Shown in pieces: positions 7,144 to 30,091 of a DNA stretch of 64,000 bases. Origin of the DNA: an uncultured bacterium (GTDB lineage Bacteria > Patescibacteriota > Minisyncoccia > Phycocordibacterales > UBA9973); contig CAITQP010000007.1 of assembly GCA_903894565.1 (NCBI GenBank), forward strand, positions 28,213-92,212. The letters are read 5' to 3'. The notes beneath the pieces are model-generated. The model saw only the letters and a list, made by a program, of their open reading frames with translations. It did no database searches and had not been told where the DNA came from. The position numbers and the translations under genes were made by a program. Positions within the stretch are counted from its first letter, which is position 1, and the number at the start of each line of letters is the position of its first letter.

Positions 7144-8406
7144 TTATTTAATTATCGTAATTTGTTTTCGAACAAGCACTCTTCCGGACTTTGTCCCTAC
7201 GAGGGTATAAATATATGCTCCATTCGGAAGATTCTCATCCAAATAGTGATTTTTATTTTCAACCCACACAACCGCGCCCCTGAGGTCATAGACGATTATG
7301 GTACCTTCCTCTGCTGACTCTTGAGGCAGCACGGGGACAGCCGTTGGATCGTGCACGACTTTTCGCACACGATCATTCTCCACATCACAGATGTAGAAGT
7401 CGCCAGCTTCATCATACGCAATACCGCGAACGGCATTTATCCGTGCATCTGTTGCAGGACCTCCGTCTCCACCGTAACCGCTCACGCCAGTACCAACAAA
7501 TGCTGTGATAACACCTGACAGGTGTATCGTCCTGATTTCTGCATTTCCGCCGTCGGAAACAGAAATGTCTCCATTACGTGCGTTATACGCAAGATAGACC
7601 GGAGTCTCAAACTCAGCGCCAGTAGCAGGCCCACCATTGCCACTAGTACCAAATGTACCCGTTCCCGCAAGCGTAGTAATAATGCCATCCGTGCTTACCT
7701 TTCTGATTTTTATGTCACTCAAATCAGCAACGTAGATGTTTCCATTCTGGTCCGCACATAGACCACAGGGAGACATCAACTCTCCGTTCGTCGCAGGGCC
7801 ACCATCTCCGCTCGAACCAAAAACACCGGTCCCAGCAATAGTTGTGATAATTCCAAATGTATCAACTTTCCGGATACGATGGTGTCCGCAATCAGAGATA
7901 AACAAATTTCCCGTGTTATCAAAACACAGGCCGTTAATCGTGTTAAATTGCGCATTTGTTGCAGCTCCACCATCGCCGAGAGTGCTCCCTGGAGCATTCC
8001 CAGCAATAGTTGTGATAATTCCAAATGTATCAATTTTCCTAACTACATTATCGTCAGCAACGACGAGACTCCCCTTAGCATCAACAGTGAGGGTGTAGAT
8101 ATTGCTCATGCCCGCATTTGTTGCGGGGCCACCATCGCCGCTCGATACGCTTGATCCATTCCCAGCAATAGTTGTAACAATTCCAGATCTTGTTATTTTC
8201 CTAATTTTAAATGTGTAGGGATCTGAAAAATATACATTTCCGTTATACACGGAAACATCTCCGGGCGCAGTAATTTTCGCCCGAGTGGCTAGACCTCCGT
8301 CGCCACTGTACCCACGCACGCCGGTACCAGCAATCGTGCTGATATTTTGTGCATTCGCATTAATAGTGGACAAAACAAGGAGCGCCACCATAAGAACTTT
8401 CTTCAT
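7144..8406 (-). CDS. secreted NHL-repeat beta-propeller protein with C-terminal T9SS-type (Por secretion C-terminal) sorting domain
   Basis: Signal peptide MKKVLMVALLVLSTINANAQ. Repeated SGDGGPAT/NHL-like blades (IRKIDTFGIITTIAGN and IRKVDTFGIITTIAGT). The C-terminus IIVYDLRGAVVWVEN...LPNGAYIYTLV...K matches the T9SS C-terminal domain consensus. Confidence 0.65.
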   Translation of the reverse strand: MKKVLMVALLVLSTINANAQNISTIAGTGVRGYSGDGGLATRAKITAPGDVSVYNGNVYFSDPYTFKIRKITRSGIVTTIAGNGSSVSSGDGGPATNAGMSNIYTLTVDAKGSLVVADDNVVRKIDTFGIITTIAGNAPGSTLGDGGAATNAQFNTINGLCFDNTGNLFISDCGHHRIRKVDTFGIITTIAGTGVFGSSGDGGPATNGELMSPCGLCADQNGNIYVADLSDIKIRKVSTDGIITTLAGTGTFGTSGNGGPATGAEFETPVYLAYNARNGDISVSDGGNAEIRTIHLSGVITAFVGTGVSGYGGDGGPATDARINAVRGIAYDEAGDFYICDVENDRVRKVVHDPTAVPVLPQESAEEGTIIVYDLRGAVVWVENKNHYLDENLPNGAYIYTLVGTKSGRVLVRKQITIIK

Positions 8407-15436: not shown

Positions 15437-16126
15437 TTACCGCTGAGAACAAAGACGAGACTGATGACCCCAAACAGAAATGCCCACACTAGGATAATTA
15501 CTGCACCCGAGGAATCGGCCGAATTTGCCGGATCGCTCGACGAGCTGTCCGCCGCACTTTGGACAGACCGAACTGGCGGTGCCAACCGAAACATCGATTT
15601 TGGCGAGGCGCAGATAGTCCATGAGTTTGAATCTGTCAACGAGTTCAATCGGCTTTTCTGCGGCGAATTTCTCGGCGTCTAAAGTGAAGACGTTGGTCGT
15701 AATGAAGTAACCCTTTCCTCCGTCGAGCTTGTCGGCAATTGCGCCATAGAAGTCGCGCACCGCACCGACAGACACTTGGCGCGTGATGAACTTCTTGCAT
15801 TGTATGTAGTGGACGACTCCATCCTTCTCGGCTTCGACATCTATTCCGCCGTCCCCGACACCACCGACCACTCGCGTCTTGTATCCAAGAGCGCGAAAAA
15901 GTTCGGCTGTGTACGATTCAAACTCAGACGGAGTGAGTCGCTGTAAATCTAAAATCTTTTTCTTACTGAAGAACCAACGGATACGACTTTTACGGTTGAG
16001 CAGATCAGTCAGCACTTGCAACGCGAGTGCGAGAATTACAACACCTCCTGCCAGAAGCCAGAGTTTTTTAACAGCCCATATTGCTTGTAAAATCTCAAAA
16101 AGAAAGTTACTTGTTCCAAAGTTCAT
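15437..16126 (-). CDS. membrane-anchored Mrr-cat family restriction endonuclease-like protein with C-terminal topoisomerase-type C4 zinc ribbon
   Basis: N-terminal transmembrane helix. Mrr_cat core GDGGIDVEAEKDGVVHYIQCKK (D...ExK). C-terminal CPKCGGQLVERSGKFGRFLGCSNYP; the final Cys of the ribbon appears missing, so a frameshift or truncation near the C-terminus is possible. Confidence 0.6.
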   Translation of the reverse strand: MNFGTSNFLFEILQAIWAVKKLWLLAGGVVILALALQVLTDLLNRKSRIRWFFSKKKILDLQRLTPSEFESYTAELFRALGYKTRVVGGVGDGGIDVEAEKDGVVHYIQCKKFITRQVSVGAVRDFYGAIADKLDGGKGYFITTNVFTLDAEKFAAEKPIELVDRFKLMDYLRLAKIDVSVGTASSVCPKCGGQLVERSGKFGRFLGCSNYPSVGISVWGHQSRLCSQR

Positions 16127-16149
16127 ATATCTAAGTAAATAAACTGCTC

Positions 16150-17934
16150 CTAACTTTGTTTGACTGGAGACATAGTGATTCGAGGCTCCCCGTTTGCATC
16201 CAGATACGGCGAGACCCTTCGGAACCCGTCCTGAATGCGCGTTCCAAAATTGTCATTTCCGGAAAGGAATTTCTTGAAATTGTTATATACCGCGTTTAAG
16301 AGAGTGTTACTTTTTTCGCCGTACTCGCTCGTTTCTGAGCCCGGAATATCCGCAGCAATTTTATCCGCCTGCTCCTGATGAGATTTTTCCGTTAGAACAT
16401 ATGTCAGAAATTCATAAGTATTGAGCCATCGCTCCTGCTCCGGACGATCAGCTTTTTGCATGAAGAAATCGAACTGCGCCTTCAGATTCTTATAGAAATC
16501 TTTTTCTGCGTCGTTCAGCAAATAATCATGCTCTTTGTTATTCTCGTCTTCCAACAGCAAAATGATGTGATTCGTCAAATAGTGTAATGATTCATGTAAA
16601 ACCGTCTCATTATAGCCTTCTTTTGATGTGTATAGCTCAGGTTCGGAAATAATGAAATCGTTCGTTGATTTTAACTCTCCGTTTTCGAGGGCGATGTTCG
16701 TCTGGGCTGTTCCGAGGTGCTTGTGAGGATTCTCTCCTTCAAAAAGAGCGACATCCAAATTTTGTGTCCCTTGTAAAAGTAAGCTCGCGAGTGTTTTCTG
16801 TCTCAGGTCGGTTGTCGTGTCTTCGATTCCCCGAAGAACTTTTGCGAGCTCTTTCTTTTCCAAGCCGAGGTATTGCTGCCATTCACCGAATTGTTCCTTG
16901 AAGTTATCCGTTCGCACTACCCTCCACGCATGCTCATCTAGATTCGACTGAGGTCCGCCTTTATAGGCGAGCAAACTGCCATGCTCGTCTTTGTCTTCAT
17001 CGGAAACATGAATCACCTCGGCCTGCTCTTCCGCTTCCTGCGTCAGAGAAAAAGCATAGCTCAATGATGCATTTTCCAGCTTTCCACCCGCAACAAATTC
17101 TTTGAATCTTTTAGTATCTGACTCTGAACCGAGAATATGAATTTGGGATGGATCGAAAACGATGATCCATTTTTTCTCTCCTTCCAATCCGCTTTTTCTT
17201 ACGATCTCGCTGCCGTCATCAATGACAGCATCATAGCCCATGGATTTTAGAGGCTTAATCTGATACTCGTTCAGATTACCAATGAAATTCATATTATGAC
17301 TTAAATCTATAACGAGGTTATTATCGCTATTGAAAAGGCCAATTTCTTTTTCCATTCTCGGGGGCTTAGTGACAATAAGTTTATCGTCTTCGATGCGATG
17401 TTTCCATCCTATGGTTGCCCATCTCTCTAGCACGCCTTCGGTACTCAACACCGTGTCTATTTCTTGTTGCCCCTCTGCCAAGACCTTATCGTCAATTTTC
17501 GAAATTTCTTTCTCTCCAGTCATTACTGGATTCTTTATATCAACAACGGAAGGAATTATTCTTTTAGCTTGATTTTCTACACTTCCACTACCCCGAGTTT
17601 TCGCATCTTCTAGACTAGAAGTAAAAAATACACCTCCATGTTTTTTGAACCCGAAGCTCGATTCTTTCTCCACATCGAATTCAGAAAATTCCTCTTCGGA
17701 AGTAGTCCCGTGCCAAACAATGTCTTTTACCTTGCTTTCAGGGAAAATAGTTTCAAGATATTTTTTGTACAACTGAACAGCCTCGGGTGAAGTTCCCCCT
17801 GCCACCCTAGCTAAGTCAGGGCTAAGCTTAAAAATTTCGTGAATGTTATTTTCCTGCACGGAAATAAAACCTTCTGACTCCTTATGACCAGGGTCTCGTT
17901 GCATATTTTCCATCGGGTTCATGTTTCCAAACAT
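16150..17934 (-). CDS. large hypothetical protein (594 aa) with possible PARP-like ART-fold N-terminus and an HExxH motif
   Basis: VWHGTTSEEEFSEF and GGVFFTSS resemble the PARP/diphtheria-toxin-type H-G-[ST] and G-x-[IV]-[YF]-F motifs. HESLH motif lies in the C-terminal half. 23-nt gap to the downstream Mrr-like gene. Confidence 0.5.
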   Translation of the reverse strand: MFGNMNPMENMQRDPGHKESEGFISVQENNIHEIFKLSPDLARVAGGTSPEAVQLYKKYLETIFPESKVKDIVWHGTTSEEEFSEFDVEKESSFGFKKHGGVFFTSSLEDAKTRGSGSVENQAKRIIPSVVDIKNPVMTGEKEISKIDDKVLAEGQQEIDTVLSTEGVLERWATIGWKHRIEDDKLIVTKPPRMEKEIGLFNSDNNLVIDLSHNMNFIGNLNEYQIKPLKSMGYDAVIDDGSEIVRKSGLEGEKKWIIVFDPSQIHILGSESDTKRFKEFVAGGKLENASLSYAFSLTQEAEEQAEVIHVSDEDKDEHGSLLAYKGGPQSNLDEHAWRVVRTDNFKEQFGEWQQYLGLEKKELAKVLRGIEDTTTDLRQKTLASLLLQGTQNLDVALFEGENPHKHLGTAQTNIALENGELKSTNDFIISEPELYTSKEGYNETVLHESLHYLTNHIILLLEDENNKEHDYLLNDAEKDFYKNLKAQFDFFMQKADRPEQERWLNTYEFLTYVLTEKSHQEQADKIAADIPGSETSEYGEKSNTLLNAVYNNFKKFLSGNDNFGTRIQDGFRRVSPYLDANGEPRITMSPVKQS

Positions 17935-17973
17935 ATGTAAAAGAATTATAGCAGAGTTAATGACCTAAAGCAG

Positions 17974-18148
17974 AAAACACCCGTCTTGGACTCGAACCGA
18001 TACGAACAGCAAAAATACCTTCCAATAGAAAGGTATTTTTGCGAATTCACGCACATTTTGAATTTTTGAGGCCTCTCGGACTCGAACCAAAATTTTGCGA
18101 ACAAACTTGCAAAATAAGGCGTCTCGGTCGGTCTCACTGTTTTGCTGC
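17974..18148. repeat. direct repeat copy A (~175 bp) containing tRNA T-arm-like motif and AT-rich hairpin
   Basis: About 80% identical to 19408..19581. Contains CTTGGACTCGAACC (17985-17998, a reverse-complement tRNA T-arm), the hairpin AGCAAAAATACCTT-N9-AAGGTATTTTTGC (18008-18042), and TCGGTCGGTCTCACTGTTTTGCTGC. Confidence 0.6.
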
Positions 18149-18247
18149 CGCACTGCGACTCGAACTTTTCTTGAAAATACGTTGCTAAATATAGACTTCG
18201 GTTTTCAATTTCTTTGAAATTCTTGGTTCGAGTCCGAGCAGGGTCAG

Positions 18248-19369
18248 TTATTTCTTAATCCCAAGAAGAGGCAGGACCGCGCCCTCGCCGCCGTTATCAC
18301 CAACAAGGGCATTCCCTGATCCATCCTTGTTAATTGAATACATCAGATGCTCTCCGAAATCTCCACCCTTTGAGGAATCGATACTCTCATATGCCAACTT
18401 GTCGCTTGATAGCCAAGCAATCGGCTGAACTATCACCTTTCCGTTCTGCGAAAGCATCTTAGATGTTTGCAGGCTAGCAATATCAGCAAGGTAAATGCCT
18501 CCCGTTGTACTGTTCGCAAAACTGTAAGCAAGGTTTTTTCCATCTGGCGACCAAATGAGATTTACGTAAGAATCCGTATTGCTCTGGATAACAGTCTGGT
18601 TAGAAGAGCTATCGAGGTTAGTAATCCCAATAGTGTACGGAGACTTCCAGTCGGTATAATACTCGCCCGGAACAAATGTAATGTATGCTACTTTGCTTTT
18701 ATCAGGAGAGAACGTGACGTTATTGATGCTGACGACATTTGGAACGGCAGTCTTTTCGATAGCGCCGCTTGTCATATTGATTGCAATCATGCCTCCGGAA
18801 GTCGCTCCATGATCACGCCCGGGGAGAACAAGAACATACATTTCTGAACTATCAGCCGACCATGCGACAGGCTTCAGCGGGAATAGTCCGTACTGCGTCA
18901 GAGAATATTTCCCCGTCAGATCTGCGATCATTTTTTGATCAGTGCCGTCATTATTAACTGTCCATAATTGGATAGAGGGATTGGGATTAAAGGTATTCGG
19001 AGCTTTTGAAAGAAATTGGGTATTCTTGAAATATGCGATCCGCTTTCCATCTGTAGAAATAGAAGGATAGGTGTAATCGCCGTCAGCTGGAAGATTGGCA
19101 ACTTTTTTTGGATCCTGACCATTTCCAACGATTGACAAGACACCGTCTTTTATTACGGCGAATTCTCCAGCGTCAGAGTAAGTAGTGTACCCCGCATAGA
19201 ACCCGCTATTTACGGAAAAAGGCGTAACACTTTTTGAAGAAGGCGTTTTTTCTGATGTTGAAGGCAAGTCCTGAACGGAGTCTTTTTGAGCATGCTTAAG
19301 AACGAAAGCATACATGGCAAGTGCTACGACTAAAACAGCGAGAATTCCTATAACGATATTCTTTTTCAT
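18248..19369 (-). CDS. membrane-anchored PD40/TolB-like beta-propeller protein
   Basis: N-terminal transmembrane helix. Repeated PD40 signatures SPDGKRIAY, SPDKSKVAY and SPDGKNLAY. Confidence 0.6.
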   Translation of the reverse strand: MKKNIVIGILAVLVVALAMYAFVLKHAQKDSVQDLPSTSEKTPSSKSVTPFSVNSGFYAGYTTYSDAGEFAVIKDGVLSIVGNGQDPKKVANLPADGDYTYPSISTDGKRIAYFKNTQFLSKAPNTFNPNPSIQLWTVNNDGTDQKMIADLTGKYSLTQYGLFPLKPVAWSADSSEMYVLVLPGRDHGATSGGMIAINMTSGAIEKTAVPNVVSINNVTFSPDKSKVAYITFVPGEYYTDWKSPYTIGITNLDSSSNQTVIQSNTDSYVNLIWSPDGKNLAYSFANSTTGGIYLADIASLQTSKMLSQNGKVIVQPIAWLSSDKLAYESIDSSKGGDFGEHLMYSINKDGSGNALVGDNGGEGAVLPLLGIKK

Positions 19370-19407
19370 ATAACTAAATTTTATCACACATCATGCTTAA
19401 AATCTCC

Positions 19408-19581
19408 AAACACCCGGCCTGGATTCGAACCAACTCAATTAGCAAAAATACCTTCGCACTAGAAGGTATTTTTGCTAATCCACGCACATTTTGAATTTTT
19501 GACGCTTCTCGGTCTATAACCAACATTTCCTAAAATACGTTGGTAATTAAGGCCTTTCGGTCGGTCTCACTGTTTTGCTGC
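19408..19581. repeat. direct repeat copy B (~174 bp) containing tRNA-Gln-like T-arm fragment and AT-rich hairpin
   Basis: CCTGGATTCGAACCAA (19418-19433) is identical to 16 nt of the tRNA-Gln 3' half at 31886-31901. Hairpin AGCAAAAATACCTT-N10-AAGGTATTTTTGC at 19441-19476. Confidence 0.6.
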
Positions 19582-19712
19582 GGGGACTAGACCAAGTTAG
19601 AACCGCACTAATGACAATTTCGGACCTAAATCGATTCGCAATTGTGGCAAAATGGCAGACAATTATTTAATTAAAACGCCATTCTTGAGCTAACGTATTT
19701 TGAGGAATTTAC

Positions 19713-19740
19713 TTGACAAAGTATATATATTGTGTATAAT
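19713..19740 (+). promoter_or_regulatory. sigma70-type promoter TTGACA-N16-TATAAT
   Basis: TTGACA at 19713-19718, a 16-nt spacer, and TATAAT at 19735-19740, about 110 nt upstream of the ORF at 19851. Confidence 0.4.
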
Positions 19741-19850
19741 ACATACCGTTCATTGAACTATAGCGGGAATGGAGAAGTCCGCAGAAAGCCATCAAGGAAA
19801 CAATTGATCTCGGTCGCACTGACGTACAGGGCACAAACGCACATTTACAA

Positions 19851-20360
19851 ATGAAAAGCGTTAAACTAACACTCACAAAGCTTGGCATCGCCGCTTGTGA
19901 AAGAATGTTCAAACCAGGCATCGAAACAATCGAATTGCCAGGAATCGGAGAAATGAAGGTGGTGACAATCCTCACGCACGAGGATGAAGCCATTGACGTA
20001 ATGAGGCTCGAAGCAGAGCTACACCCAACCAGTTCTCGTGGCTGGATCAAGCAATGCCTCATGTGGGGAGTGAAGCTTGGACAGGAAGTTCTCCCAGAAT
20101 CAAATAATGGAGAGAGCATCATGAGCCTCATCGTCCGCACATTGGTCGCCCTCGACACCGAACATGTGCCGTGTAATTTTATCCTCATGCGGTCGCACGT
20201 CCGTGATGAGGGTGCCGTACAGCACAGGAGTGATTGTTACTACAACTATCACATCGCCCAGCCACAGCAGGAATTGATTGCCGTCGCCGTGCGGAACGCA
20301 AAAATCGCGGGGCATCACCCAGACCATGCGCTCATGCTGATACCTGGCGCACTTAGTTAA
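19851..20360 (+). CDS. hypothetical protein (169 aa)
   Basis: Preferred over the overlapping antisense ORF 19709..20188, which is low-complexity. A strong upstream promoter is present. Confidence 0.4.
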   Translation: MKSVKLTLTKLGIAACERMFKPGIETIELPGIGEMKVVTILTHEDEAIDVMRLEAELHPTSSRGWIKQCLMWGVKLGQEVLPESNNGESIMSLIVRTLVALDTEHVPCNFILMRSHVRDEGAVQHRSDCYYNYHIAQPQQELIAVAVRNAKIAGHHPDHALMLIPGALS

Positions 20361-20479
20361 AGAAAACAAATTGAAGTAACAGCCGTCCATCACAAGTGGG
20401 CGGCTTTATTTTTTATAGAATAAAAAAGAGGCTCTCAAAAAATGAAAGCCTCATAAAAATCTGTTTTGCACAATAGAAA

Positions 20480-21019
20480 TCAGGCAGTTGCCTTTTTAAA
20501 GATAAACCTCTCATGAATGGGAATCTTGTGCTTTATTCCGTCTGGCTCAAACAGTTTCAAAATCTCGGATTCAAGAATCCCTCCGAATGTCTCAACGGGG
20601 TAGCCTGCGTCCTCGACCAGTTGCCCGAACTGTATCTTTTTCTTCCGCACTGGAAGGTCTTTTCGGTGAACACCGAAAATAATTTCCCGTATGCCAGTCT
20701 GAAAAATGACAGAACTGCACATTTGGCAGGGTTCGGCAGTCGTGTAAATTGTGCATCCTTCGAGACGCTCACTGCGCTGTTCCTTGCACGCCTTGCGTAT
20801 CGCCACGATCTCAGCGTGATTGGTCGGGTCACAGGTATGCTTGTCTTTGGCATGACCCCTACCGATGACTTCGCCATTTCGCACGACGACCGCACCGATG
20901 GGAAGCTGATTTTTCTTTACTTTCTTGGCTTGCTTGATCGCCTCACGCATGAAATGCTCATCATACGGATTGTTCGCCCCGTGATTTGCTGGAGGGGGGG
21001 GTAACTCTTTTCTAACCAT
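20480..21019 (-). CDS. CDA-fold nucleoside/nucleotide deaminase (TadA-like) with ~50-aa C-terminal extension
   Basis: Zinc-binding motifs HAEIVAI and PCQMC. N-terminal DEHFMREAIKQAKK aligns with TadA. Confidence 0.7.
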   Translation of the reverse strand: MVRKELPPPPANHGANNPYDEHFMREAIKQAKKVKKNQLPIGAVVVRNGEVIGRGHAKDKHTCDPTNHAEIVAIRKACKEQRSERLEGCTIYTTAEPCQMCSSVIFQTGIREIIFGVHRKDLPVRKKKIQFGQLVEDAGYPVETFGGILESEILKLFEPDGIKHKIPIHERFIFKKATA

Positions 21020-21207
21020 GTCTATATTTTTTAGTGGGTTACCTGAAACTCCGAAAGCCAGAGGCTCGGGTAACCCACGAAAATCCTGTCAAAGAGCGAT
21101 GTATAATTTTACATTAACACGAATTGCATTTTTTGACAATCAAACTAAATCGTGTTATTTTTAAACCGAAAAAGCAAATTCATCACAATTCAAAAATATG
21201 ATCAATC

Positions 21208-22044
21208 ATGCAAACAGAAACACTTACTCGCCCAAAGAGCGAAGTCATGAAAGAGCTTCGCTCGGCACTCATAGCCGCATTTGAAATCATTGGCTACAAG
21301 AATTTCGTACACTACAGAATATCCAAGGAAAATCACCTCACATCGTATTTCGACATCACCATCTTGGGCGATGAGAATGCGGACAAGAGGAAGCTGAAAT
21401 GGGATGCCCTGCTGGATTCTATTATCAGGGAGTTCGAGACGGAAGCGAACTTCAAGGTGCTGGACGACCAGAACGAGCAGATCCGCTTGTGGGTCGGACA
21501 GGAATGCGAACTGCGCCAGAGCCAGCCGAAGAAAGAGATCGTCATCGCGGTTGAAGAAATTGTCGAGGAAGTGATTGAACAGTTGTCATTTTTTTCTCCA
21601 CTGATTCCCGTCAAAAAGGAAGAGAAGCCGAAACCCGTGCCCGTCGCACAAGCACCCAAAGCAAAGGTCATGGTCAAGCCGAGCATGTTTCTCAAATCAC
21701 ACAAGAAAGGCAAGGCGATCTACGACAAGAGGATTCTGGCGGACATGTACATGACAATCTATATGTCACTACAGAAAGAAGCCAAGCTGAAACTTGGAAG
21801 CGACTTCAGCCTGAGCAATCCCGATGGCTCGTCGCTTGAGCTAAAGTTCGTCCCGAGCCAGAGCAACGCTGGGCTGTCTGTCGCAGAGAGAGTTTCAAGA
21901 GCGCGCACGCATTTTGAGACCAAGTTCAACAACGATACGACCAATCCTTATTTTCCCATTACGCTCGGCAAGGATTCCGTGCATGAGGAGATTATCGTTT
22001 TGAACGTCGCCGAGGAATATCACAGGCGATGCGAGACAAAGTAA
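21208..22044 (+). CDS. hypothetical protein (278 aa)
   Basis: ORF in a region that looks GC-richer than the flanks by eye, followed by a terminator. No recognisable domain. Confidence 0.5.
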   Translation: MQTETLTRPKSEVMKELRSALIAAFEIIGYKNFVHYRISKENHLTSYFDITILGDENADKRKLKWDALLDSIIREFETEANFKVLDDQNEQIRLWVGQECELRQSQPKKEIVIAVEEIVEEVIEQLSFFSPLIPVKKEEKPKPVPVAQAPKAKVMVKPSMFLKSHKKGKAIYDKRILADMYMTIYMSLQKEAKLKLGSDFSLSNPDGSSLELKFVPSQSNAGLSVAERVSRARTHFETKFNNDTTNPYFPITLGKDSVHEEIIVLNVAEEYHRRCETK

Positions 22045-22059
22045 TTGCATTTTTATTTT

Positions 22060-22097
22060 AGGGCTACCCGCTGAACGCTGGTAGCCCTATTTTTTTC
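22060..22097 (+). terminator. rho-independent terminator
   Basis: AGGGCTACC ... GGTAGCCCT hairpin followed by ATTTTTTT. Confidence 0.5.
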
Positions 22098-22129
22098 TAA
22101 AAATAAGAATCGGTGCGTTCTCAAAGAAA

Positions 22130-24475
22130 TCAGAATGAATCTTTCAAAGAATCCCAGCCAGTAAATGAGTCTGAATGCGAATATTTTTCATTAGTGTTAA
22201 TCTTCCATCCATTCGGACCGTCCTGCACAGCTATACCTCCATCAAAACCTTTTTTGCTTTTGAGCCATACCCGAAGTGCTTCCGCTTTGTAGGTCGTGTC
22301 CGGCATCTCGGCTGTCGAGCCCTTCTTGGTGTCAATGACCCAAACCGCGCTTTTCGTCTTTACGATCCAGTCAGGATAAAAGAGCTTCTCCTTGTTCTCG
22401 TCGGGATTGAAATACGAGATCGAGAAGTATTCACTTCCGGCGTCGCCGTTCTTGTACCACCAAAGAACACTCTTGTGTGCTTCGAGGAATGAGATGAACT
22501 CCTTTTCGTTATCTTCGCCTTTATATTCCTTTTCGATGTAGAACGGCTGTAGCGCCGATTTTTCGGCTTTGATCTTTGCCTCCTTGGCTGTGTGGTAGGC
22601 ATCAGTGAAAAAGAGCGTCTGGCGCGGGATTTCAATCGTCTCCGTGCGCTTGGACCGCTCGGATTTTTTGTTCACCTCGCGCTCGCGGATCGGGCGATAG
22701 GTGGCTAGGGCGTCGCCGACGACGGGAGCAAGGACGCTCGCCGGATTGAGCAGATCGGCCACCACGATCCGGTAGATCGTCTGGCGCGTTTCGCCGATCC
22801 GGTTCAGGAGCCAAACATTTAGAGCCGTCTTCAGCTTGCCCCAGGAACGTTCGGGAGCGAACTTCTTATTCTCGTCCACTTGCTTGGAGATAAGCGCAAA
22901 GCATCGGAGATTATAGAGACGTTCAAGGTCGTACTGTGACATCTCCTGATCGTGCTCGCTTCCCTCGGAGAGAAGCTCCCTGGTGAAGTTGTCATAGTCG
23001 TCGATTTCAACGCCAACAATGATACCGTTGGTCACTATCGGTTCTGGCTCAAGGTTCTTGGCGGCGAGCTTTTTGAGGGCCACTTGCTTGCTATCATTTT
23101 TGGAGATGCCGAAGTATTTATCGGCCGCTTTGGAGAACGTCTCTTGAAAGCTGTCACCAAGGTCATTGTAGTCTGTGCGGCTCATGAAGATTGACTCAAG
23201 CTCGACCGGCTCGACGTCCTCCCTGCGGTGGCTCGGGAAAATAGCCGGACGATTATCGGACTTTGATTTGGCATATTCCGCGAGAACTTCGTTGCGCTTG
23301 TAGTTCGTGTAGAGATAGCCCACGTTCAGCTCCGGCCGCGCGAAATGGACACCGAGCGGCATACGGAGGATACGTCCGACCGTCTGGATGGCGAACGTCG
23401 GGTTCTTGATCTCACGAAACATGACGAGCACTCCCGCGCGTGGGCAATCCCATCCAGTCGCGGCGGCTTGCTTGAACAGGAGGAATGACTTGGGCGAGTT
23501 ATTTTTCTCGATGTCCTGTAAATTAACCTTGTCATCCGAGAGCCAAACGGCGATTTCGTCTTCGAGAACGCCTTTCTGCTTCAAGAAGTTGAGAACTATA
23601 TTCTGTTTGTTGACTGTAGCCGTGTCCTTGCTGGCCTGGTCGTCATTCGGAAGCTGTATAAGGACGAGCGGATTGATGTCTTTGCCGAGCGATTTGTAGT
23701 GTACGGCAAGCTCGCGCCGCTTGTCGAAAGCGAGGGCAAGGAGGATGTCGTCCTGGTCCATGCTCTTGAACTCCTTACGATTAAGGTCTTCTTCTGTCTG
23801 AAAAATGATTTTCTCTTTAATAAGTCCTGCCTCCACGACGTCGTCCCGCTTGGCCTGGACGAAGCCACCGCGCCGCTCGCCAATCTCCTCGGCGTTCGGG
23901 ATATACTTCGGCGTAGCCGAGACGCGGATCGTGATTTTCGGCTGAATGAGGCCGTCCACGATCTCCATGGCAAGGTCCGTGTCGGACCCGATGTGTTCCT
24001 CGTCGATGATAACCACGAGCTTGCGTCCGTCCTCGTGAGTACGGTTGATGACGTTGTCGAACGTGAAGCCCCACTCGTTCTCTTTGCGGAGCTTGCGACT
24101 CTCTTTGCTCTTGCCTTTAATCTTCTGCCAGTTGATGAAAAAGACCGAGTTCTTTGAAAGCTTGCCTCGTGTCAGATCGTTGAGATCAAGCAGGTCGAGT
24201 TCGGATGCGCCGCCGTAGTATTCAAAGAGTTTGTTCTTGCTCTGGACATACGAGTCCTCGCTGAACGTAAGCCAAAGAAAGGCAACATCGTTTCCCTGGA
24301 AGCGCGGATCGCCGACAAGGTCCCGAAGGAACTGCGCGATCATGATCGTTTTGCCCGAGCCGGTAGGCGATTTGAAAACGAGCGGGATGTTCTGGTGCGG
24401 CGATTTCCAGAGCGAAAGGAATTCATCCTTGAGCTTCGCTACGGTCGTTTCTTGGAATGGTTTGAGTGCAAACAT
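22130..24475 (-). CDS. res: Type III restriction-modification system restriction subunit (Res)
   Basis: Helicase motif I SPTGSGKTIM and motif II IIDEEH. C-terminal PD-(D/E)xK (YPDWIVKTKSAVWVIDTKKG). The ATG at 24475 directly follows the mod stop codon (TAATATG). Confidence 0.8.
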   Translation of the reverse strand: MFALKPFQETTVAKLKDEFLSLWKSPHQNIPLVFKSPTGSGKTIMIAQFLRDLVGDPRFQGNDVAFLWLTFSEDSYVQSKNKLFEYYGGASELDLLDLNDLTRGKLSKNSVFFINWQKIKGKSKESRKLRKENEWGFTFDNVINRTHEDGRKLVVIIDEEHIGSDTDLAMEIVDGLIQPKITIRVSATPKYIPNAEEIGERRGGFVQAKRDDVVEAGLIKEKIIFQTEEDLNRKEFKSMDQDDILLALAFDKRRELAVHYKSLGKDINPLVLIQLPNDDQASKDTATVNKQNIVLNFLKQKGVLEDEIAVWLSDDKVNLQDIEKNNSPKSFLLFKQAAATGWDCPRAGVLVMFREIKNPTFAIQTVGRILRMPLGVHFARPELNVGYLYTNYKRNEVLAEYAKSKSDNRPAIFPSHRREDVEPVELESIFMSRTDYNDLGDSFQETFSKAADKYFGISKNDSKQVALKKLAAKNLEPEPIVTNGIIVGVEIDDYDNFTRELLSEGSEHDQEMSQYDLERLYNLRCFALISKQVDENKKFAPERSWGKLKTALNVWLLNRIGETRQTIYRIVVADLLNPASVLAPVVGDALATYRPIREREVNKKSERSKRTETIEIPRQTLFFTDAYHTAKEAKIKAEKSALQPFYIEKEYKGEDNEKEFISFLEAHKSVLWWYKNGDAGSEYFSISYFNPDENKEKLFYPDWIVKTKSAVWVIDTKKGSTAEMPDTTYKAEALRVWLKSKKGFDGGIAVQDGPNGWKINTNEKYSHSDSFTGWDSLKDSF

Positions 24476-24476
24476 A

Positions 24477-26216
24477 TTAGAGTCGGTTAATTTCCTTGTA
24501 AACCTCAATGATCGGCTCGGGAATATCCTCGACTCGGATATGGTCTGTTGAGTACTCGTTTTTGTATTCGTTCTTACCCCAACTGAAAGCGTAAAGGACG
24601 ACAGGGGTGTTCTTCTTTTCGAGCAATTTTATGAGTTCGGGAAGCTTGGTTTTGTCCTCCTTGAAGTAGATGGCGGTCAGCTTGCCGTTGCCCTCGAAAA
24701 TCTGCCACCAATCGGTACGCTCGATTTCGCTGAGCGTATCCTCACGGAGTGCGATCATCTCTCCGGCTTGATGGGATATTTTAACCCTTGCTTCGTCCGA
24801 AATTTTCTGGAGCTTGTCGATGTTCACGAGATCGGTCTTGTAGTACGAGAGATTGCCGCCGAGACCGGAAACGGCCTCGCCCTTCTTGTTCTTGTAGCCT
24901 TTCATGACGCGCTTGATGCGTTCGTAGGTCACTTCCTCGCAAATCTTGTTCTCGTTATTGGTACAAAGAATGAAGCGACGGTTGCCGCCGTCTTGCTTGT
25001 TGAGTTCGAGAACTGCGTGGCCGGTCGTGCCCGAACCGGCGAAAAAGTCAAGGACCGTGGCGTTTTTATCTTCCGACAAAACAAGTATCGAGTCTATAAG
25101 CGCATGAAGTGATTTCGGGTAGTCAAACTTTTTTTCTCCAAGTAGAGATGTTAGTAAGTTCGCACCCATTGATGAGGCAGAGTAATCGGGCTTATCCCAA
25201 ATCGTATAAGGCAACATCCATTCATCACGCATTCTGCCTTTGTAGTAGACCGAGGGATTTTTGTCTTTGTCTAAACGAACGCCCATCTCGGTATTTTTTA
25301 CCGCTTCAACAGTATCGATTGACCATTTCCACGTTCTCTCGCGCCCGTTCGGGTCTACAGGGATTGAAATTACTTCGGAAGCATTAGGCTTTTCTAAAAG
25401 GTCATAAGATTGCCTCTCCGTATTCCATTTTAATTTTGGTATCCGAAAGCCCGAGCAATCCTTCTTTACGAAGATAGGATACTTCATTCTTGGTGACTCA
25501 GTACTGTATTGAGCGCGGAAGTTTCTCCACTCAAACGGACCATTAGCATCGGATTGTTTATAGCGATCGATCTGTTCCTGAGTTCTTGGAAGCCTACCAA
25601 TTTTTGCTTTCGACGAACGACCGTAAAAAAGTGCATACTCGTGAGAAACCTGAAAACCAGAAACACTAGAGCGTCCTTGCGGATTGTTTTTTATTACAAC
25701 TGTCCCAAGATGATTTTCTTCTCCAAATATTTCATTCATCAAAAGCGTCAAGGTGGCAATCTCGTAATCGTCGATGGTTACGAGAATTATTCCTTCATCT
25801 TTTAAGAGCGAACGTGCCAGGCGTAATCGCTTTTCCATAAAGCTAAGCCATTTACTGTGACGAAAAGCGTCGTTGCCATCGACGTAGTCATTGTTATAAA
25901 TCCAGTTTTTTGCTCCTGTGTTGTATGGCGGATCAGCGTATATTGCATCAACTTTTCCTGAATGAGTATAGTTTAAAACTGAAAGCGAATGATAATTGTC
26001 TCCCTCTATTAAAATGTTTTTCGGTAAGCAATCATTATTGACGATTTTCCTACTCTGGACCTCCTTCAAAAGTGGCACGTTCTCCGCGCATTGCAAAACA
26101 ACATCCTCCGGTTTGTGTTCCCAAACCAAGCCGTATTTTTTCTGGTTCTTTAATTTTTTGATCTCGGATTGTAAATCGGAGATGCGAGCCAGTAGCTCTT
26201 TTGTATTTTCTGACAT
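24477..26216 (-). CDS. mod: Type III restriction-modification system N6-adenine methyltransferase (Mod)
   Basis: DPPY motif (YADPPYNTG) and SAM-binding FFAGSGTTGHAV. Sits immediately upstream of res on the same strand. Confidence 0.8.
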   Translation of the reverse strand: MSENTKELLARISDLQSEIKKLKNQKKYGLVWEHKPEDVVLQCAENVPLLKEVQSRKIVNNDCLPKNILIEGDNYHSLSVLNYTHSGKVDAIYADPPYNTGAKNWIYNNDYVDGNDAFRHSKWLSFMEKRLRLARSLLKDEGIILVTIDDYEIATLTLLMNEIFGEENHLGTVVIKNNPQGRSSVSGFQVSHEYALFYGRSSKAKIGRLPRTQEQIDRYKQSDANGPFEWRNFRAQYSTESPRMKYPIFVKKDCSGFRIPKLKWNTERQSYDLLEKPNASEVISIPVDPNGRERTWKWSIDTVEAVKNTEMGVRLDKDKNPSVYYKGRMRDEWMLPYTIWDKPDYSASSMGANLLTSLLGEKKFDYPKSLHALIDSILVLSEDKNATVLDFFAGSGTTGHAVLELNKQDGGNRRFILCTNNENKICEEVTYERIKRVMKGYKNKKGEAVSGLGGNLSYYKTDLVNIDKLQKISDEARVKISHQAGEMIALREDTLSEIERTDWWQIFEGNGKLTAIYFKEDKTKLPELIKLLEKKNTPVVLYAFSWGKNEYKNEYSTDHIRVEDIPEPIIEVYKEINRL

Positions 26217-26475
26217 AGGCGATACTATGTCAGGCGGTTCTTATTGAAATTGAAGCTCAAAAAGGGGGACGCCTGATGATCGCCACATAGTACATAGGCC
26301 GAGGCCGTCGCTCATGTGCATCAGGTGTTGCCCCCTTGTTGCTCACGAACGACAGCCCGGCCCCTTTTGAAGGGCTTGGTCCAATACTATGTGGCGATAA
26401 GTATAGCTTAACAGAAAAACCAATTTTTTACACTAAACGTGGTAAAATGACTATTCATAAAACAAAAAAAACGCC

Positions 26476-27846
26476 ATGAATGATTATCAGCCCGAATGGA
26501 AAATCTACCTTTGGAGAAAAATGCTTGTCGGACACAGCGATGAGACCGTTCTTCACTCTATTCGAGATTTTATCTATTTTGACGAGTCCGAGCAGAGGGA
26601 TTTGATGCTCAAAGAAGCTCAAGGTTCAATCGATGCGATCAATACGTCATACACCAAAGCAATCAGCACCAAAACACCAATGGAAGTCGATAGCGGCGAC
26701 GCTCTCAGCCACACTGAACGTTTTTATAATTCCAATGTCGAGAACGCATTTTTAGGTTTGCTCGGGTTGAACAGTGAGACTCCGGCGGGGCTCACTTTGA
26801 GTGAACTATATATTACGCCCAAATATATCGAAAAATATCAGCAAGATGTCCGACGACGCGCCGCACAGGAAGAAAAGAAAAGGATCGCATCGATCAGTGG
26901 CGGGCACGCATACCGAAGCGAGAAAGCTGACGCGTATTTGAGAGATAAATTTTGCGGGTTGGGTTCAACCATTTTCAATAAGGTCCAAAACTCTCAATTT
27001 TTGACGATTACCGATCTGGTGACTCTGATGCAAATTAACGACCCTCTGATATGGCAAAATCTCACGTTCAAAATTGAAATCCACGAAACCGCCCTCCGAA
27101 AAATCTTATCGGACTACCTCGACGAGTTTCGGACTGGCGACCTACTCGGCGCTCCGAAGATGCGATATTTCAGCTATCCCAAGCAACGGGAAAAATTGAT
27201 AGAGGCGATCAAAGTCCTAACTGAAAAATACGACTCAAAAAATCTTCGGGTTACATTTGAAGAATTGGCCAGAGCGGGAGGATGGTACTTGAAGGATGAA
27301 AATCATTTTCGTTTCTACGAGACGATGTTCTCGCTTGAAAAAGAGAATGTGATAAAAATCATTGACTTGGTCAAAGAGGAAATAATTATCTCCCTCACCC
27401 GAGATTTCATGATGGATCAGCAAGCCATCGATGAAGGCAATCACCCTTTCAGTGGGACCGCTGCCGAAACTGCGTACTTCCTTGATTTTGATCCAAAAAC
27501 GAGAGAGCTTGTTCTTAACAAGGAGTACATTCTCTCTACTCCTAATTTTTCCAGCGAGAACCACAATTTCATCGAGTATGTTTTTGCGCGGCCAAACGAA
27601 AAAATCACCAAGGAGGAAATAGAGACTGCGATAAAAAAATCTCTGGGAAAGAGCTTTCATCAAATCCTAAACGACCTTGGTTTCAAGGGCGAATTGAGGA
27701 AAATGTTTTTTCCGAGCGTTTCAAAAGACGGCATCATTTTTGAAAACAGCATTTCATATAAAGATTTTGAGGATCGAAAGATTGATACTAAAAAATTAGC
27801 TTTGGATATAAAAAAATTACACAAATTAAGAAGTAGTAAGAAATAG
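26476..27846 (+). CDS. hypothetical protein (456 aa)
   Basis: Long ORF with no recognisable motif. First gene of a plus-strand block that ends with the integrase and recombinase. Confidence 0.5.
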   Translation: MNDYQPEWKIYLWRKMLVGHSDETVLHSIRDFIYFDESEQRDLMLKEAQGSIDAINTSYTKAISTKTPMEVDSGDALSHTERFYNSNVENAFLGLLGLNSETPAGLTLSELYITPKYIEKYQQDVRRRAAQEEKKRIASISGGHAYRSEKADAYLRDKFCGLGSTIFNKVQNSQFLTITDLVTLMQINDPLIWQNLTFKIEIHETALRKILSDYLDEFRTGDLLGAPKMRYFSYPKQREKLIEAIKVLTEKYDSKNLRVTFEELARAGGWYLKDENHFRFYETMFSLEKENVIKIIDLVKEEIIISLTRDFMMDQQAIDEGNHPFSGTAAETAYFLDFDPKTRELVLNKEYILSTPNFSSENHNFIEYVFARPNEKITKEEIETAIKKSLGKSFHQILNDLGFKGELRKMFFPSVSKDGIIFENSISYKDFEDRKIDTKKLALDIKKLHKLRSSKK

Positions 27847-28030
27847 TCAGAAAGACATTGAACTAACAAGATAACGGCTATGGAATAGTGGCGACATGGG
27901 ATGCTCAAATTGAGCTCCTTTTTGTTTTGCTCAACTAAATGCCATGGAAAAAATCCGAGCAGGTTCTCTGTTTGCTTGGTCTGTCTGTTCATGGCGTTCG
28001 GACGGATCAAGCAAAGAGTGAGCCTGCACT

Positions 28031-28213
28031 ATGTTACCAGAACAGGCCATTGACGAATATATCAAGATGTTCCGAAAGAAGTTCGGAGTCACGCTTTCCA
28101 GACAGGAAGCGTCATTTCGTGCTAACCATTTGGTCAATCTGTATAAGGCGGTCCTTGGCCCAGAGTCATCTGGGGAAGTAAAAAAGGTCGAGAAACCAAA
28201 CGATAGCCGTTAA
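28031..28213 (+). CDS. hypothetical small protein (60 aa)
   Basis: Short ORF in the same orientation within the element. Confidence 0.3.
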   Translation: MLPEQAIDEYIKMFRKKFGVTLSRQEASFRANHLVNLYKAVLGPESSGEVKKVEKPNDSR

Positions 28214-28217
28214 TCCT

Positions 28218-28562
28218 ATGACAAGGATCAACGGCCAAAAAATCATCGGTTCGACAAGTTATACAATCAAAGAACTTGCGAGAGATGCGGATGTGAATGA
28301 GAAAACTTGCTTGCGTTGGATCGAACAGGGGCTCCCGACCGTTCCTGGCGGGAAAAATCCGATCCTCATGCGCGGCTTTGAGATCAAAGATTTTTTGAGA
28401 AAAAAAGACTCAAAAAAGAAAATAAAATTGAAGCGACACGAGTTTTATTGTCTCAGATGCAAGGCCGCGCGGAGCGCAAAGCGAAACACGATCAAGAAGC
28501 TAAACGGGCGAAAAACAGGCGAATGTCGTGTCTGCAACGGGAAAATGAGCCGGACAATCTAA
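28218..28562 (+). CDS. HTH (excisionase/MerR-like) DNA-binding protein with C-terminal CxxC zinc ribbon
   Basis: YTIKELARDADVNEKTCLRWIEQG helix-turn-helix. C-terminal CLRCK...CRVCNGK. Confidence 0.5.
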   Translation: MTRINGQKIIGSTSYTIKELARDADVNEKTCLRWIEQGLPTVPGGKNPILMRGFEIKDFLRKKDSKKKIKLKRHEFYCLRCKAARSAKRNTIKKLNGRKTGECRVCNGKMSRTI

Positions 28563-28703
28563 CCCTGCCAAAAGGACTAAATGATATTCTCTCTCCCAAC
28601 TTAAATGTCCGTTTAGAGCGAGAAACGCGCGTATCGATTCGGTAACAAAAAGAACCCTAAAAAAGCAGGCAATTATCAAACTAAAAAACACTAAATTAAT
28701 TCT

Positions 28704-28937
28704 ATGGAAACACCATCAAACGAAGAAAAAATCGAGCTAAAAATCAGCCTCAGAAATATACCGTATGTTGTCTCTGCTCTTGAATCGGAAATAGAGCATC
28801 TGAAAAAAATCCAGAAAGCCTGTACTAAGAAAAAGCAATTCCAAGCGGCAAACGATCTCCTACCCGGAATTATGCTCTTAGAAAAAATGGCAAAACACTT
28901 GAAGCCCATGAAGCCGACCCCATTACCTCTTACCTAA
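28704..28937 (+). CDS. hypothetical small protein (77 aa)
   Basis: Short ORF immediately upstream of the integrase. Confidence 0.3.
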   Translation: METPSNEEKIELKISLRNIPYVVSALESEIEHLKKIQKACTKKKQFQAANDLLPGIMLLEKMAKHLKPMKPTPLPLT

Positions 28938-28949
28938 CCATTCTTAGTC

Positions 28950-30062
28950 ATGAAAACACCTTACGAAAACGAGCAGATAAAGAGGCAATTCTTTGAGCAG
29001 TTAAAAGGCGCTCGGGGGTTTGCCAAAAGCTCGGTGCGTACTCACGCCGACGCCATCACACAATGGGATACCTTCAATCAGAACGAGGACTATTCCACCT
29101 ACGATAAATCAAAAGCTGCCGCCTTTACGGAGTGGCTCAGCACGAGACCCGCCAAATCAAAATCCGGCAAAGTTTCCCTTGTTACCCAGTCGAACTATAT
29201 TCGCCGCATAAAGAAGTTCTTTGAGTGGCTTTGCGAACAGCCCGGCTACAAGAGCAAGATACAAAAAAACGATGTGGACTACTTACGCCTCTCAAAAGCG
29301 GATGCCCAAATCGCACGTTTGGGAACCACCAAAAAAATGCCTACCTTTGAGGACGCTAAAAAGATAATCGAGGGCATTGATGGCAAGTCCGAAATCGACA
29401 TGCGCGACCGTGCCCTCATCTCTTTTGCGCTCATCACGGGTGCTCGCATCAATGCCATCATTTCCTTGAAGATGAAAAGCTTTGACAAAGAGAAGAAACA
29501 AATCGACCAGAACCCAGGTGACGGAGTGAAGACCAAAAACACGAAACGAATACTTACCACATTCTTCCCAATTGGTTGGGACGATCCAGAAAAATATTTC
29601 ATGGAATGGTATGAGTACTTGGAGTCAAAGGGTTTTGGACCTGATGAGCCGATCTTTCCGATGACATCCCATTCTTTTGGCGGAGGAGAAAATAGCTACA
29701 GTAAAGAAGCCATTGGGCAAGATGCTTGGGTTGGCACAGGCGCGGCACGCAAGATTTTTGAAAAGCGATGCAAAAGTGCCTACCTTCAGTATTTCCACCC
29801 GCACTCCTTTCGCCATTTGGTTGTAAGCATCCTTAGCAAGAAACGCCTTACCGAGGAAGAGAAGAAAGCGATCAGCTTAAATCTGGGACACGAGAATGTC
29901 ACGACCACATTTGGATCATATGGATATGGCGCTATGAGCAATACGGATGCCGTCAAAATCGTTCAGAAATTGAAGGATATTCAAGAAGGTTCGAGCGATA
30001 CTCTGGCACTCACCGACCAAGAAAGGGCCGTTTTCGAGAAAATAGCTAAGCGTATCTTGTAG
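28950..30062 (+). CDS. int: tyrosine-type site-specific recombinase/integrase
   Basis: Catalytic Arg in ALITGARINAI, box II HPHSFRHLVV (HxxR), and LGHENVTTTFGSYGYG containing the catalytic Tyr region. Confidence 0.8.
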   Translation: MKTPYENEQIKRQFFEQLKGARGFAKSSVRTHADAITQWDTFNQNEDYSTYDKSKAAAFTEWLSTRPAKSKSGKVSLVTQSNYIRRIKKFFEWLCEQPGYKSKIQKNDVDYLRLSKADAQIARLGTTKKMPTFEDAKKIIEGIDGKSEIDMRDRALISFALITGARINAIISLKMKSFDKEKKQIDQNPGDGVKTKNTKRILTTFFPIGWDDPEKYFMEWYEYLESKGFGPDEPIFPMTSHSFGGGENSYSKEAIGQDAWVGTGAARKIFEKRCKSAYLQYFHPHSFRHLVVSILSKKRLTEEEKKAISLNLGHENVTTTFGSYGYGAMSNTDAVKIVQKLKDIQEGSSDTLALTDQERAVFEKIAKRIL

Positions 30063-30091
30063 ACTTGCAATGTAAACAATAGTAAAGTAAA

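Follow-up and report, generated by a model that had tools for sequence, protein, structure and literature searches.

Displaced copies of a tRNA-Gln 3' flank beside a probable serine recombinase island in a candidate phyla radiation bacterium

Why would a small bacterial contig carry two direct repeats of ca. 175 bp, with pieces that resemble a tRNA T arm, at a distance of 12 to 14 kb from the tRNA-Gln gene that they recall? The DNA in question is a stretch of 64,000 nucleotides of contig CAITQP010000007.1 (assembly GCA_903894565.1), referred to here as the window. Its GC content is 44.6%, the host is a bacterium of the candidate phyla radiation (CPR), and homologs of the neighboring genes carry the source names Candidatus Pacebacteria or Paceibacterota. 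An earlier note, made from the sequence alone, had read the repeats (copies A and B) as stacked attachment-site (att) scars left by successive integrations at one tRNA locus. Our analysis indicates that the repeats are almost certainly displaced copies of the native 3' flank of tRNA-Gln(CUG), with no free-standing element involved, and that they were probably displaced when an island encoding a large serine recombinase (LSR) inserted at the 3' end of this tRNA gene.

The repeats and the native 3' flank of tRNA-Gln

A repeat search of the window aligned copy A (17935-18148) with copy B (19368-19581) over 214 nt, gap-free, at 75% identity. BLASTN gave 82% over 176 nt (E=7e-45), and the mean column identity in a MAFFT alignment of the two copies was 79%, so that the direct repeats are real. 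The flank element proper occupies 17970-18142 in copy A (A-type; nhmmer E=1.7e-58) and 19403-19575 in copy B (B-type allele), both in tRNA sense on the minus strand; the repeat-search span of copy A comprises the element, the core GCAGCA, and a less similar stretch of ca. 35 nt that reaches the start codon downstream. Conserved blocks lie at equal offsets in the two copies, in exact register. They are block 1 (18124-18148 and 19557-19581), block 2 (18048-18069 in copy A), a hairpin (arms at 18030-18042 and 18009-18021 in copy A; 19438-19479 in copy B), and a T-arm-like motif, referred to here as motif #2 (19418-19433 in copy B). On its tRNA-proximal side, each copy also has what reads as a degenerate tRNA-Gln 3' end on the minus strand, namely PsiA (AGTTCGAGTCGCAGTGCGGCAGCA, 18143-18166, from the T loop to the discriminator plus CA) and PsiB (CTTGGTCTAGTCCCCGCAGCA, 19576-19596), and the repeat is thus longer than had been noted before. 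PsiA is identical to tRNA-Gln at 17 of 24 positions, with the shared core GGCAGCA at 18143-18149, and its junction is 90% conserved in L008.

The origin of the repeat is apparent from related genomes. In four Pacebacteria-like lineages (L005, L015, L018-L023, and L028), an intact tRNA-Gln(CUG) is joined directly to the same ca. 175 nt, the tRNA end ...TCTGGCAGCA running into AAACAGTGAGACC..., and this unoccupied site is A-type in all of them. The junction in L005, which is syntenic with window positions 31876-41368 at 72 to 77%, reads ...GGTTCGAATCCAGGTCTGGCAGCA followed by AAACAGTGAGACCGACCGAGACGCC..., with the element immediately 3' of the intact tRNA-Gln(CUG); the arrangement in the other three lineages was read from the genomic contexts of LOG-protein homologs. 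A comparison with an uninterrupted tRNA-Gln locus, as had been proposed earlier, was available, and because the element abuts the intact gene in these relatives, the 175 bp correspond to its native 3' flank. It is block 1 (window positions 18148 and 19581) that makes contact with the tRNA, while the T-arm-like motifs lie at the opposite end. Past the element lies the 3' end of a convergent Cu-oxidase gene in L005, L009, and L018-L023 and a same-strand gene of 501 aa in L028, while the L015 contig stops inside the element. Copy A is 86.5 to 90.4% identical to the native flanks at intact tRNA-Gln (L005, L018, and L028), and its acceptor-like tail AGACGGGTGTTTT matches AGAGGGGTTATTTT of L028. Copy B is 74 to 79% identical to the native flanks and closest to the copy in L012; it is 78% identical to both copy A and the L012 copy, and the segment ACCAACGTATTTTAGGAAAT is common to copy B and L012.

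Two copies within 1.4 kb, at a locus where the contigs of relatives frequently break off within tRNA-Gln or the element or beside them (L005, L010, and L015), might also suggest a dispersed miniature mobile repeat, of the kind of miniature inverted-repeat transposable elements or repetitive extragenic palindromes, or else an assembly artifact. We consider this extremely improbable. The 20-mer AAAACAGTGAGACCGACCGA from block 1 had a single match among 185,579 species genomes, L005, at tRNA-Gln. The block-1 scans of genomes and metagenomes retrieved tRNA-Gln-linked copies only, besides two GC-rich chance matches (L006 and L007), with none of the unrelated loci expected of a dispersed family; the two real metagenomic matches were both at displaced-tRNA junctions. 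Three scans of viral contigs, with block 1, blocks 1 and 2, and the hairpin, gave no match. The seemingly perfect conservation of block 1 is partly due to ascertainment, as block 1 was the search query, and it differs in the copies of L011, L012, and L015, which were found by other routes. Moreover, the repeats have neither terminal inverted repeats nor target duplications, and the separately built Logan contig L001 (run ERR4193932) is 100% identical across both copies, which makes an artifact unlikely. An integron cassette array with attC sites was likewise considered and discarded, since repeat and nhmmer searches found just two copies of the element within the 64 kb, with no array, and the unit is a tRNA flank in relatives.

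Each copy is followed, after about 50 nt, by the start of a minus-strand open reading frame (ORF). Copy A precedes, by 51 nt, a gene with an ART-PolyVal domain (16150-17934; ORF and domain search), and copy B precedes a PD40/Tricorn-like beta-propeller gene of 373 aa that lies between the two copies (18248-19369; ORF and homolog search). The repeats could accordingly be duplicated promoter or 5'-leader regions that regulate these two genes, as the copies end 49 to 51 nt before a same-strand ATG with the -10-like sequences TATAAT and TAAAAT just upstream. Nevertheless, what comes after the native element is a convergent gene's 3' end and not a start codon, different genes follow the element in L008, L012, and L028, and the sole PD40 homolog found (P0002, 54%) has an upstream spacer of 64 nt, lacks the element, and lies in an unrelated chromosomal context. 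A regulatory role of this sort seems very improbable, and we rejected the repeat as a conserved PD40 leader on the grounds of the same homolog.

Island 1 and its large serine recombinase

The intact tRNA-Gln(CUG) of the window (31877-31948, minus strand; ARAGORN and Rfam, 57 bits), the putative attachment target, is separated from copy B by island 1, with 12.3 kb (19582-31875). The island codes for a 169-aa ORF product, a deaminase of the cytidine/dCMP type, a ResIII helicase, an N6/N4 methylase (the latter three within 20480-26216), a 456-aa ORF product, a tyrosine integrase, a small HTH_17 protein, and the LSR. The last of these (30279-31925, plus strand) combines the Pfam domains Resolvase, Recombinase, and Zn_ribbon_recom (PF00239, E=2e-21; PF07508; PF13408) in a single protein of 548 aa, whose last 16 codons are antisense to tRNA-Gln, so that its translation ends in ...VLPDLDSNQDTLLQRQ.

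This C-terminal end provided the means to delimit the island. When window position 31881 was joined in silico to position 19582, the LSR gained the C-terminal tail VLRGLDQVRTALMTISDLNRFAIVAKW and read through to ...VLRGLDQVRTALMTISDLNRFAIVAKWQTII, with the pattern LDxVRT...F.IV..W. A tail of the LDxVR type was flagged in 13 of the 120 best LSR homologs (P0123-P0242), one of them (P0177) a false positive of the regular expression, and the tail of the joined protein aligns with those of the remaining 12. Of the 120 homologs, 58 have C-terminal tails that contain [DEG]SN, the translation of the antisense T loop. L024 carries an LSR with the uninterrupted tail next to TrwB and relaxase genes and has no tRNA nearby. 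Because joining the ends restores the tail of the family, attP would lie inside the 3' end of the LSR gene, the junction would be the GCAGCA at the end of block 1, and 19582 would be the left end of the island. We hold these boundaries, set by core comparison and tail reconstruction, with very high confidence. The left end itself (P arm, 19582-19680, plus strand) encodes RGLDQVRTALMTISDLNRFAIVAKWQTII in frame after the LSR gene. The LSR would thus exist in an integrated form that ends in ...LPDLDSNQDTLLQRQ, antisense to the tRNA, and in a predicted circle form that ends in ...LRGLDQVRTALMTISDLNRFAIVAKWQTII.

The core GCAGCA at the distal, attR-type junction (19576-19581, minus strand) recurs at the tRNA-Gln end (31876-31881), and the islands of L012 and L026 have the direct-repeat core CAGCA at both of their junctions. 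All of the distal junctions contain CAGCA and have no other sequence in common, and an alignment of the island-side (P) arms of five junctions likewise showed nothing shared but CAGCA; the att sites share a core of 5 to 6 bp, with arms that are merely similar. The arrangement of an LSR gene that runs into the tRNA is repeated in L012, L013, and L026. The LSRs of the window and L012 are only 27% identical, and both end in the same frame inside tRNA-Gln. In L012 and L013, an island of 5.5 kb with an LSR and without a tyrosine integrase lies between tRNA-Gln and the element, and the flank copy beyond the L012 island is B-type-like. In L026, a 71%-identical LSR, together with the Int/HTH_17 module, runs into tRNA-Gln(UUG), and the distal end of the island encodes ALDEVRTNLMTISDLQKFAFVRSW.

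The catalyst is most likely the LSR, acting on a core of 5 to 6 bp, rather than a tyrosine integrase of the classical kind, which targets tRNA genes and has a long direct repeat. In its favor are the L012 island, which has no tyrosine integrase, and the 58 homologs with tRNA-antisense tails. The window also encodes a tyrosine integrase (28950-30062) and the HTH_17 small protein (30092-30274) upstream of the LSR, on the plus strand (Pfam; 28950-30274 as a whole). This three-gene module is shared with L026 and absent from the L012 island. Taken as the work of a tyrosine integrase, the earlier reading is probably wrong about the class of enzyme. The symmetry of attP pointed to two incompatible centers, for which reason we make no claim about a crossover dinucleotide.

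Two T-loop-like motifs, GGTTCGAGCCGAGAG (31700-31716) and GGTTCGAGCCGTTC (31803-31822), lie on the minus strand within the C-terminal coding region of the LSR gene, where they encode residues ...LGSNLL... and ...RLEPIN...; RLEPxN is conserved across the family tails. A third copy of the element downstream of tRNA-Gln (31650-31877) was considered for these two matches and rejected, as both fall within LSR coding sequence and cannot be aligned to the element.

The 169-aa ORF of island 1, which has no Pfam match, is preceded at 19713-19740 (plus strand), shortly after the left boundary of the island, by a perfect match to the sigma-70 consensus promoter (TTGACA, 16 nt, TATAAT; 12/12). To the left of copy A (15437-17934, minus strand), the ART-PolyVal gene, an ADP-ribosyltransferase-domain protein, is accompanied by an Mrr-type nuclease with a Top1 zinc ribbon. 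The cargo on both sides of the repeats looks defense-like or mobile-element-like.

T-arm-like motifs, hairpin, and structured RNA

The motif GGTTCGARTCC occurs five times in the window, against an expectation of 0.06, with four of the five in 17988-19431 and the fifth in tRNA-Gln. As previously noticed, positions 19418-19433 of copy B, the 16-mer CCTGGATTCGAACCAA, match tRNA-Gln 31886-31901 without a difference, and the internal motif CTCGGACTCGAACC is present as well, at 18075-18088, that is, 8 nt away from the position 18067 given for it. The latter belongs to motif #1 of copy A (TTTTGGTTCGAGTCCGAGAGGCCTC region, 18075-18096, minus strand), found by motif search, which forms an inverted repeat with 18194-18245; the pairs of its stem are disrupted both in L012 and in L028, a native copy, and there is no covariation. 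Motif #2 of copy A (GGTTCGAGTCCAAGACGGGT, 17979-17998, minus strand; motif search) marks where the unit conserved across genomes ends distally and matches the GAGTCCAAG allele of tRNA-Gln (L012 and L018) over 14 nt. In L012 this motif is GTTCGAGTCCAGGTCTGGTGC, almost a full tRNA-Gln 3' end, while in the native locus of L018 it is degenerate (AGCTCGAGTCCAG), and the flanks diverge right after it in L005, L008, L012, and L028. The region 18194-18245 (plus strand) resembles an inverted tRNA relic with a short hairpin, a T arm, and an acceptor-like 3' strand. It has a weak mascRNA-like match in Rfam (23.5 bits against a gathering score of 42.5 bits; E=0.11), is homologous to element positions 37-83, i.e., motif #1 and the hairpin that precedes it (nhmmer E=4e-4), and is conserved in L008. 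The T-arm-like motifs would be decayed relics of tRNA 3' ends from still older events, a reading that we moderately favor, as we do that of motif #2 as an old breakpoint and tRNA-Gln-derived relic.

These motifs were the basis of the earlier proposal. Spelled out, it would make the T-arm 14- and 16-mers (17985 and 19418) the att cores used by tyrosine integrases that inserted one after another at the tRNA-Gln T loop, with the hairpin as a preferred target. The perfect match of copy B to tRNA-Gln (16/16), the nearly whole tRNA-Gln 3' end that L012 keeps at this point, the change of flanks right past the motif across genomes, and the presence of a tyrosine integrase would all agree with it. However, the sequence after the motif (CCGGGTG in copy B; CCGGGTG or ACGGGTG among the copies) is unable to pair with the 5' strand of the tRNA, UGCCAGA. 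The ends of island 1 are set by the tail reconstruction at GCAGCA beside block 1 (18143-18148 and 19576-19581), at the opposite end of the repeats. Motif #2 is also present, although degenerate, in native loci without an island and therefore predates the present insertions, and the hairpin is never interrupted in the element. The probability of this scheme is low in our view. What stands of the earlier reading is the recombination hot spot at tRNA-Gln and the origin of the T-arm pieces from tRNA 3' ends; most of the 175 bp are native flank and not the scar of successive elements.

The hairpin of copy A (18008-18043) consists of an A-tract, the stem ACCTT/AAGGT, and a T-tract, with a folding energy of -23.3 kcal/mol (z=-6.9), and the copies as a whole fold at -23 to -26 kcal/mol (z of about -7). 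Its arm GCAAAAATACCTT occurs six times in the window (both arms of A, both arms of B, and 32803/32891) against 0.14 expected, in agreement with the sharing observed before. Among eight copies, the stems hardly varied (12 of 15 pairs without any change) and the loops were variable. The role of insertion target assigned to it found no support, given that the hairpin, with its loop of 4 to 8 nt unbroken, was intact in all 13 element copies seen, with all breakpoints elsewhere. In native loci, it is located between the convergent tRNA-Gln and Cu-oxidase genes, where it would act as a bidirectional intrinsic terminator. The arrangement AGCAAAAATACCTTC-loop-GAAGGTATTTTTGCT has exactly the layout of such terminators (A-tract, stem, and U-tract between convergent genes), as read from sequence and folding. 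In the window and L014, the LOG gene, convergent with pyrG, also has a hairpin of this stem sequence after it. A scan for consensus terminators did not flag it. We regard the putative terminator role as somewhat more probable than its opposite.

The LOG-downstream hairpin, whose shared stem arms are ca. 88 nt apart, was found among the fetched loci only in the window and its closest relative, L014. A 75-nt sequence is present in the window in inverted copies that are 84% identical (32820-32894 and 36352-36426). Long perfect hairpins (32769-32937 and 36335-36451) enclose the two copies in their loops, and the stem AGCAAAAATACCTT is common to the first hairpin and the flank element.

The flank could also be a functional RNA, a 3' trailer of tRNA-Gln with one or two tRNA-like (T-loop) modules that is transcribed together with the tRNA and processed by RNase P/Z, and the repeats duplicated RNA genes. 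The element is indeed more conserved (ca. 90% identity) than the LOG core gene (72 to 75%) and the spacer between tRNA and LOG (42 to 62%), with the first 82 nt ca. 95% conserved among A-type copies, and one can draw an acceptor-like helix of 7 bp (UGAGACC/GGCCUCA), a hairpin of 6 bp, and a T stem of 6 bp, in which 88% of the cells pair. Single-sequence folds of both strands gave z values of -3 to -4.8, driven by one big hairpin. One proposed pair was changed on both sides, with a low overall variation among copies. Against an RNA gene, the covariation term of RNAalifold was unfavorable (+1.17), and the covariation score was 0.077, compared with 0.079 in shuffles (301 of 500 shuffles equaled or exceeded the observed value). 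Pairs are broken in native copies (GAGACC to GAGAGT in L015; CCAGGA in T stem #1 of L028), and the z of the 77-nt module fold was inconsistent, from -3.5 to +0.4. ARAGORN detected no tRNA in the repeats, and Rfam none at the gathering score or at E<=10, in line with the earlier observation that no complete tRNA is present. A cloverleaf without a D arm (element positions 14-83) was also tried and rejected, since it had no support from covariation and is broken by the native copies of L015 and L028. Finally, the adjacent protein-coding DNA of the Cu-oxidase gene is conserved to the same degree (91%, with core genes at 72% identity in the same genomes), which indicates recent lateral spread rather than a special constraint. 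A structured RNA is not supported by these results, and we regard it as improbable.

The segment formed by the Cu-oxidase gene end, the element, and tRNA-Gln is 91% identical between L005 (1-365) and L018 (9604-9972) and between L009 (1-856) and L018 (9009-9867), while core genes are at 72 to 74%, and the Cu-oxidase side of tRNA-Gln appears to be laterally exchanged. Beyond it, L018 has the copper resistance genes for CsoR and a CopA-like ATPase, which in L008 are found directly after the element.

Elsewhere in the window, tRNA-Thr(GGU) (39896-40160, minus strand) is interrupted just after the anticodon by ca. 185 nt, between GCCGTTGTAGCTCAGTTGGTAGAGCACATTCATGGT and AAGAATGAGGTCTCCGGTTCGATCCCGGACAACGGCTCA. 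The gene was missed by ARAGORN and had no Rfam match at E<=1, and its ortholog in L005 (6647-6720) is uninterrupted; the interruption may represent either a small intron or inserted DNA. In L012, L015, and L017, this tRNA cluster includes genes of the LAGLIDADG and GIY-YIG types. At 7662-8201, a unit of ca. 168 nt is present in four tandem copies that are 62 to 98% identical.

History of the locus and its place among known systems

In the history that we consider probable, the LSR would recombine an attP in the 3' coding end of its own gene, around GTTCTAACTTGGTCTAGTCCCCGCAGCACTACTGGACTGTTAGAGC, with an attB whose left half is the acceptor/T stem of tRNA-Gln and whose right half is block 1 of the flank. 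A crossover in or next to GCAGCA would keep the tRNA intact and move the flank to the distal junction (attR), so that the inserted mobile DNA would account for the 12 to 14 kb between the flank copies and tRNA-Gln. Excision is predicted to release a circle, whose junction restores the conserved LSR tail, and to restore an attB in which tRNA-Gln is joined to copy B (...TCTGGCAGCA followed by AAACAGTGAGACCGACCGAAAGG).

A single insertion displaces one flank, and the second copy requires either a duplication or an incoming element with its own tRNA end and flank. We favor the latter origin because the allele of copy B is a different one, found in the L012 lineage as well, copy A is the orthologous allele, and PsiA starts in the T loop. 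By these comparisons, copy A is the older, orthologous flank and copy B a second allele, which is also found beyond the LSR island in L012. In an earlier insertion, the PD40 gene would have arrived with a foreign, B-type tRNA end and flank, pushing the resident PsiA and copy A outward; the junction of tRNA and copy B left by this event would still have been attB-like and would later have been used by island 1. The unit 17985-18246 (inverted tRNA-like relic, PsiA, and element) recurs in L008 at 90% identity between entirely different genes, and the PD40 segment thus looks like the cargo of a small or decayed element. We lean towards this two-step order of events, with less confidence than for the displacement as such.

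Several observations weigh against this history. A B-type flank beside an intact tRNA-Gln, i.e., its empty site, was not found among the loci of relatives, so that the two-step order is one that we infer. The sequence past motif #2 differs in almost every genome, and this makes a breakpoint of the element's distal end, for which the model offers "older events" only. That the element is more conserved than core genes could mean a function. The tyrosine integrase encoded in the islands of the window and L026 is also a candidate catalyst. Lastly, a manual search for the attP dyad was ambiguous, as TCTAAC/GTTAGA is centered on GC and AGTCC/GGACT is centered 3 nt away.

The phenomenon is of a known kind, islands that accrete at a tRNA gene, and no new class of element. 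As in genomic islands at tRNA 3' ends, with their tandem accretion and their integrase-less remnants of the cis-mobilizable element type between att sites, the window has an intact tRNA with an adjacent recombinase gene at one end, tRNA-3'-like sequence with the original flank at the other, and a segment without a recombinase (PD40) bracketed by repeated att-flank modules. The tRNA-Gln locus is also hypervariable at the strain level, since the DNA after the tRNA is wholly different among close relatives such as L014 (LOG 98% identical), L011 (87%), and L027 (80%). In contrast to such islands, the repeated unit of the window consists mostly of chromosomal flank (175 bp) instead of the tRNA 3' end, just 5 to 6 bp make up the identity core, and the recombinase is likely of the serine and not the tyrosine type. 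The combination of a serine recombinase whose own gene contains attP, a target in a tRNA, and a host from the CPR is of a less common flavor.

SSV1-type archaeal viruses have tyrosine recombinases with attP in the integrase gene and a tRNA target, and integration splits the gene in two. The window resembles them in the location of attP, the tRNA target, and the ORF altered by integration, but the LSR would exchange only its last ca. 30 codons, leaving the catalytic domains intact. Serine integrases of Streptococcus integrative and conjugative elements (ICEs) at rumA have a direct repeat within the integrase gene, and integration swaps the 3' parts, so that the C terminus becomes different in sequence and in length (Ambroset et al. 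2016, PMC4701971). The window LSR likewise changes its C terminus, in silico, but it has a tRNA gene in antisense reading for its target instead of a protein gene, and its host belongs to the CPR. All of the tRNA-targeting ICE integrases in that Streptococcus survey were tyrosine recombinases (PMC4701971).

A bolder possibility, which we put forward only tentatively, is that of a CPR-wide LSR family that targets the extreme 3' end of tRNA-Gln from an attP in its own coding end. Its members would toggle between an LDxVRT...W C terminus when free and a tRNA-antisense C terminus when integrated, as a sensor of the integration state that sets directionality or stability; the flank would be kept as the B' half of a reusable landing pad, and the repeats would be chromosomal half-sites. 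If true, this family would break two habits of serine integrases, by its tRNA target and by an attP within its own coding end.

What looked like odd repeats of tRNA fragments becomes a delimited hot spot, with the tRNA-Gln 3' end as attB, a 12.3-kb island with defined ends, and a PD40 segment bracketed by flank copies. Natural attP/attB pairs on a conserved tRNA target may be of use in recombinase engineering. The mobile elements of CPR/Patescibacteria are poorly charted, and the last LSR codons, ...DSN..., antisense to the tRNA T loop, offer a signature with which integrated elements could be traced, down to their exact junctions, in fragmented metagenome assemblies.

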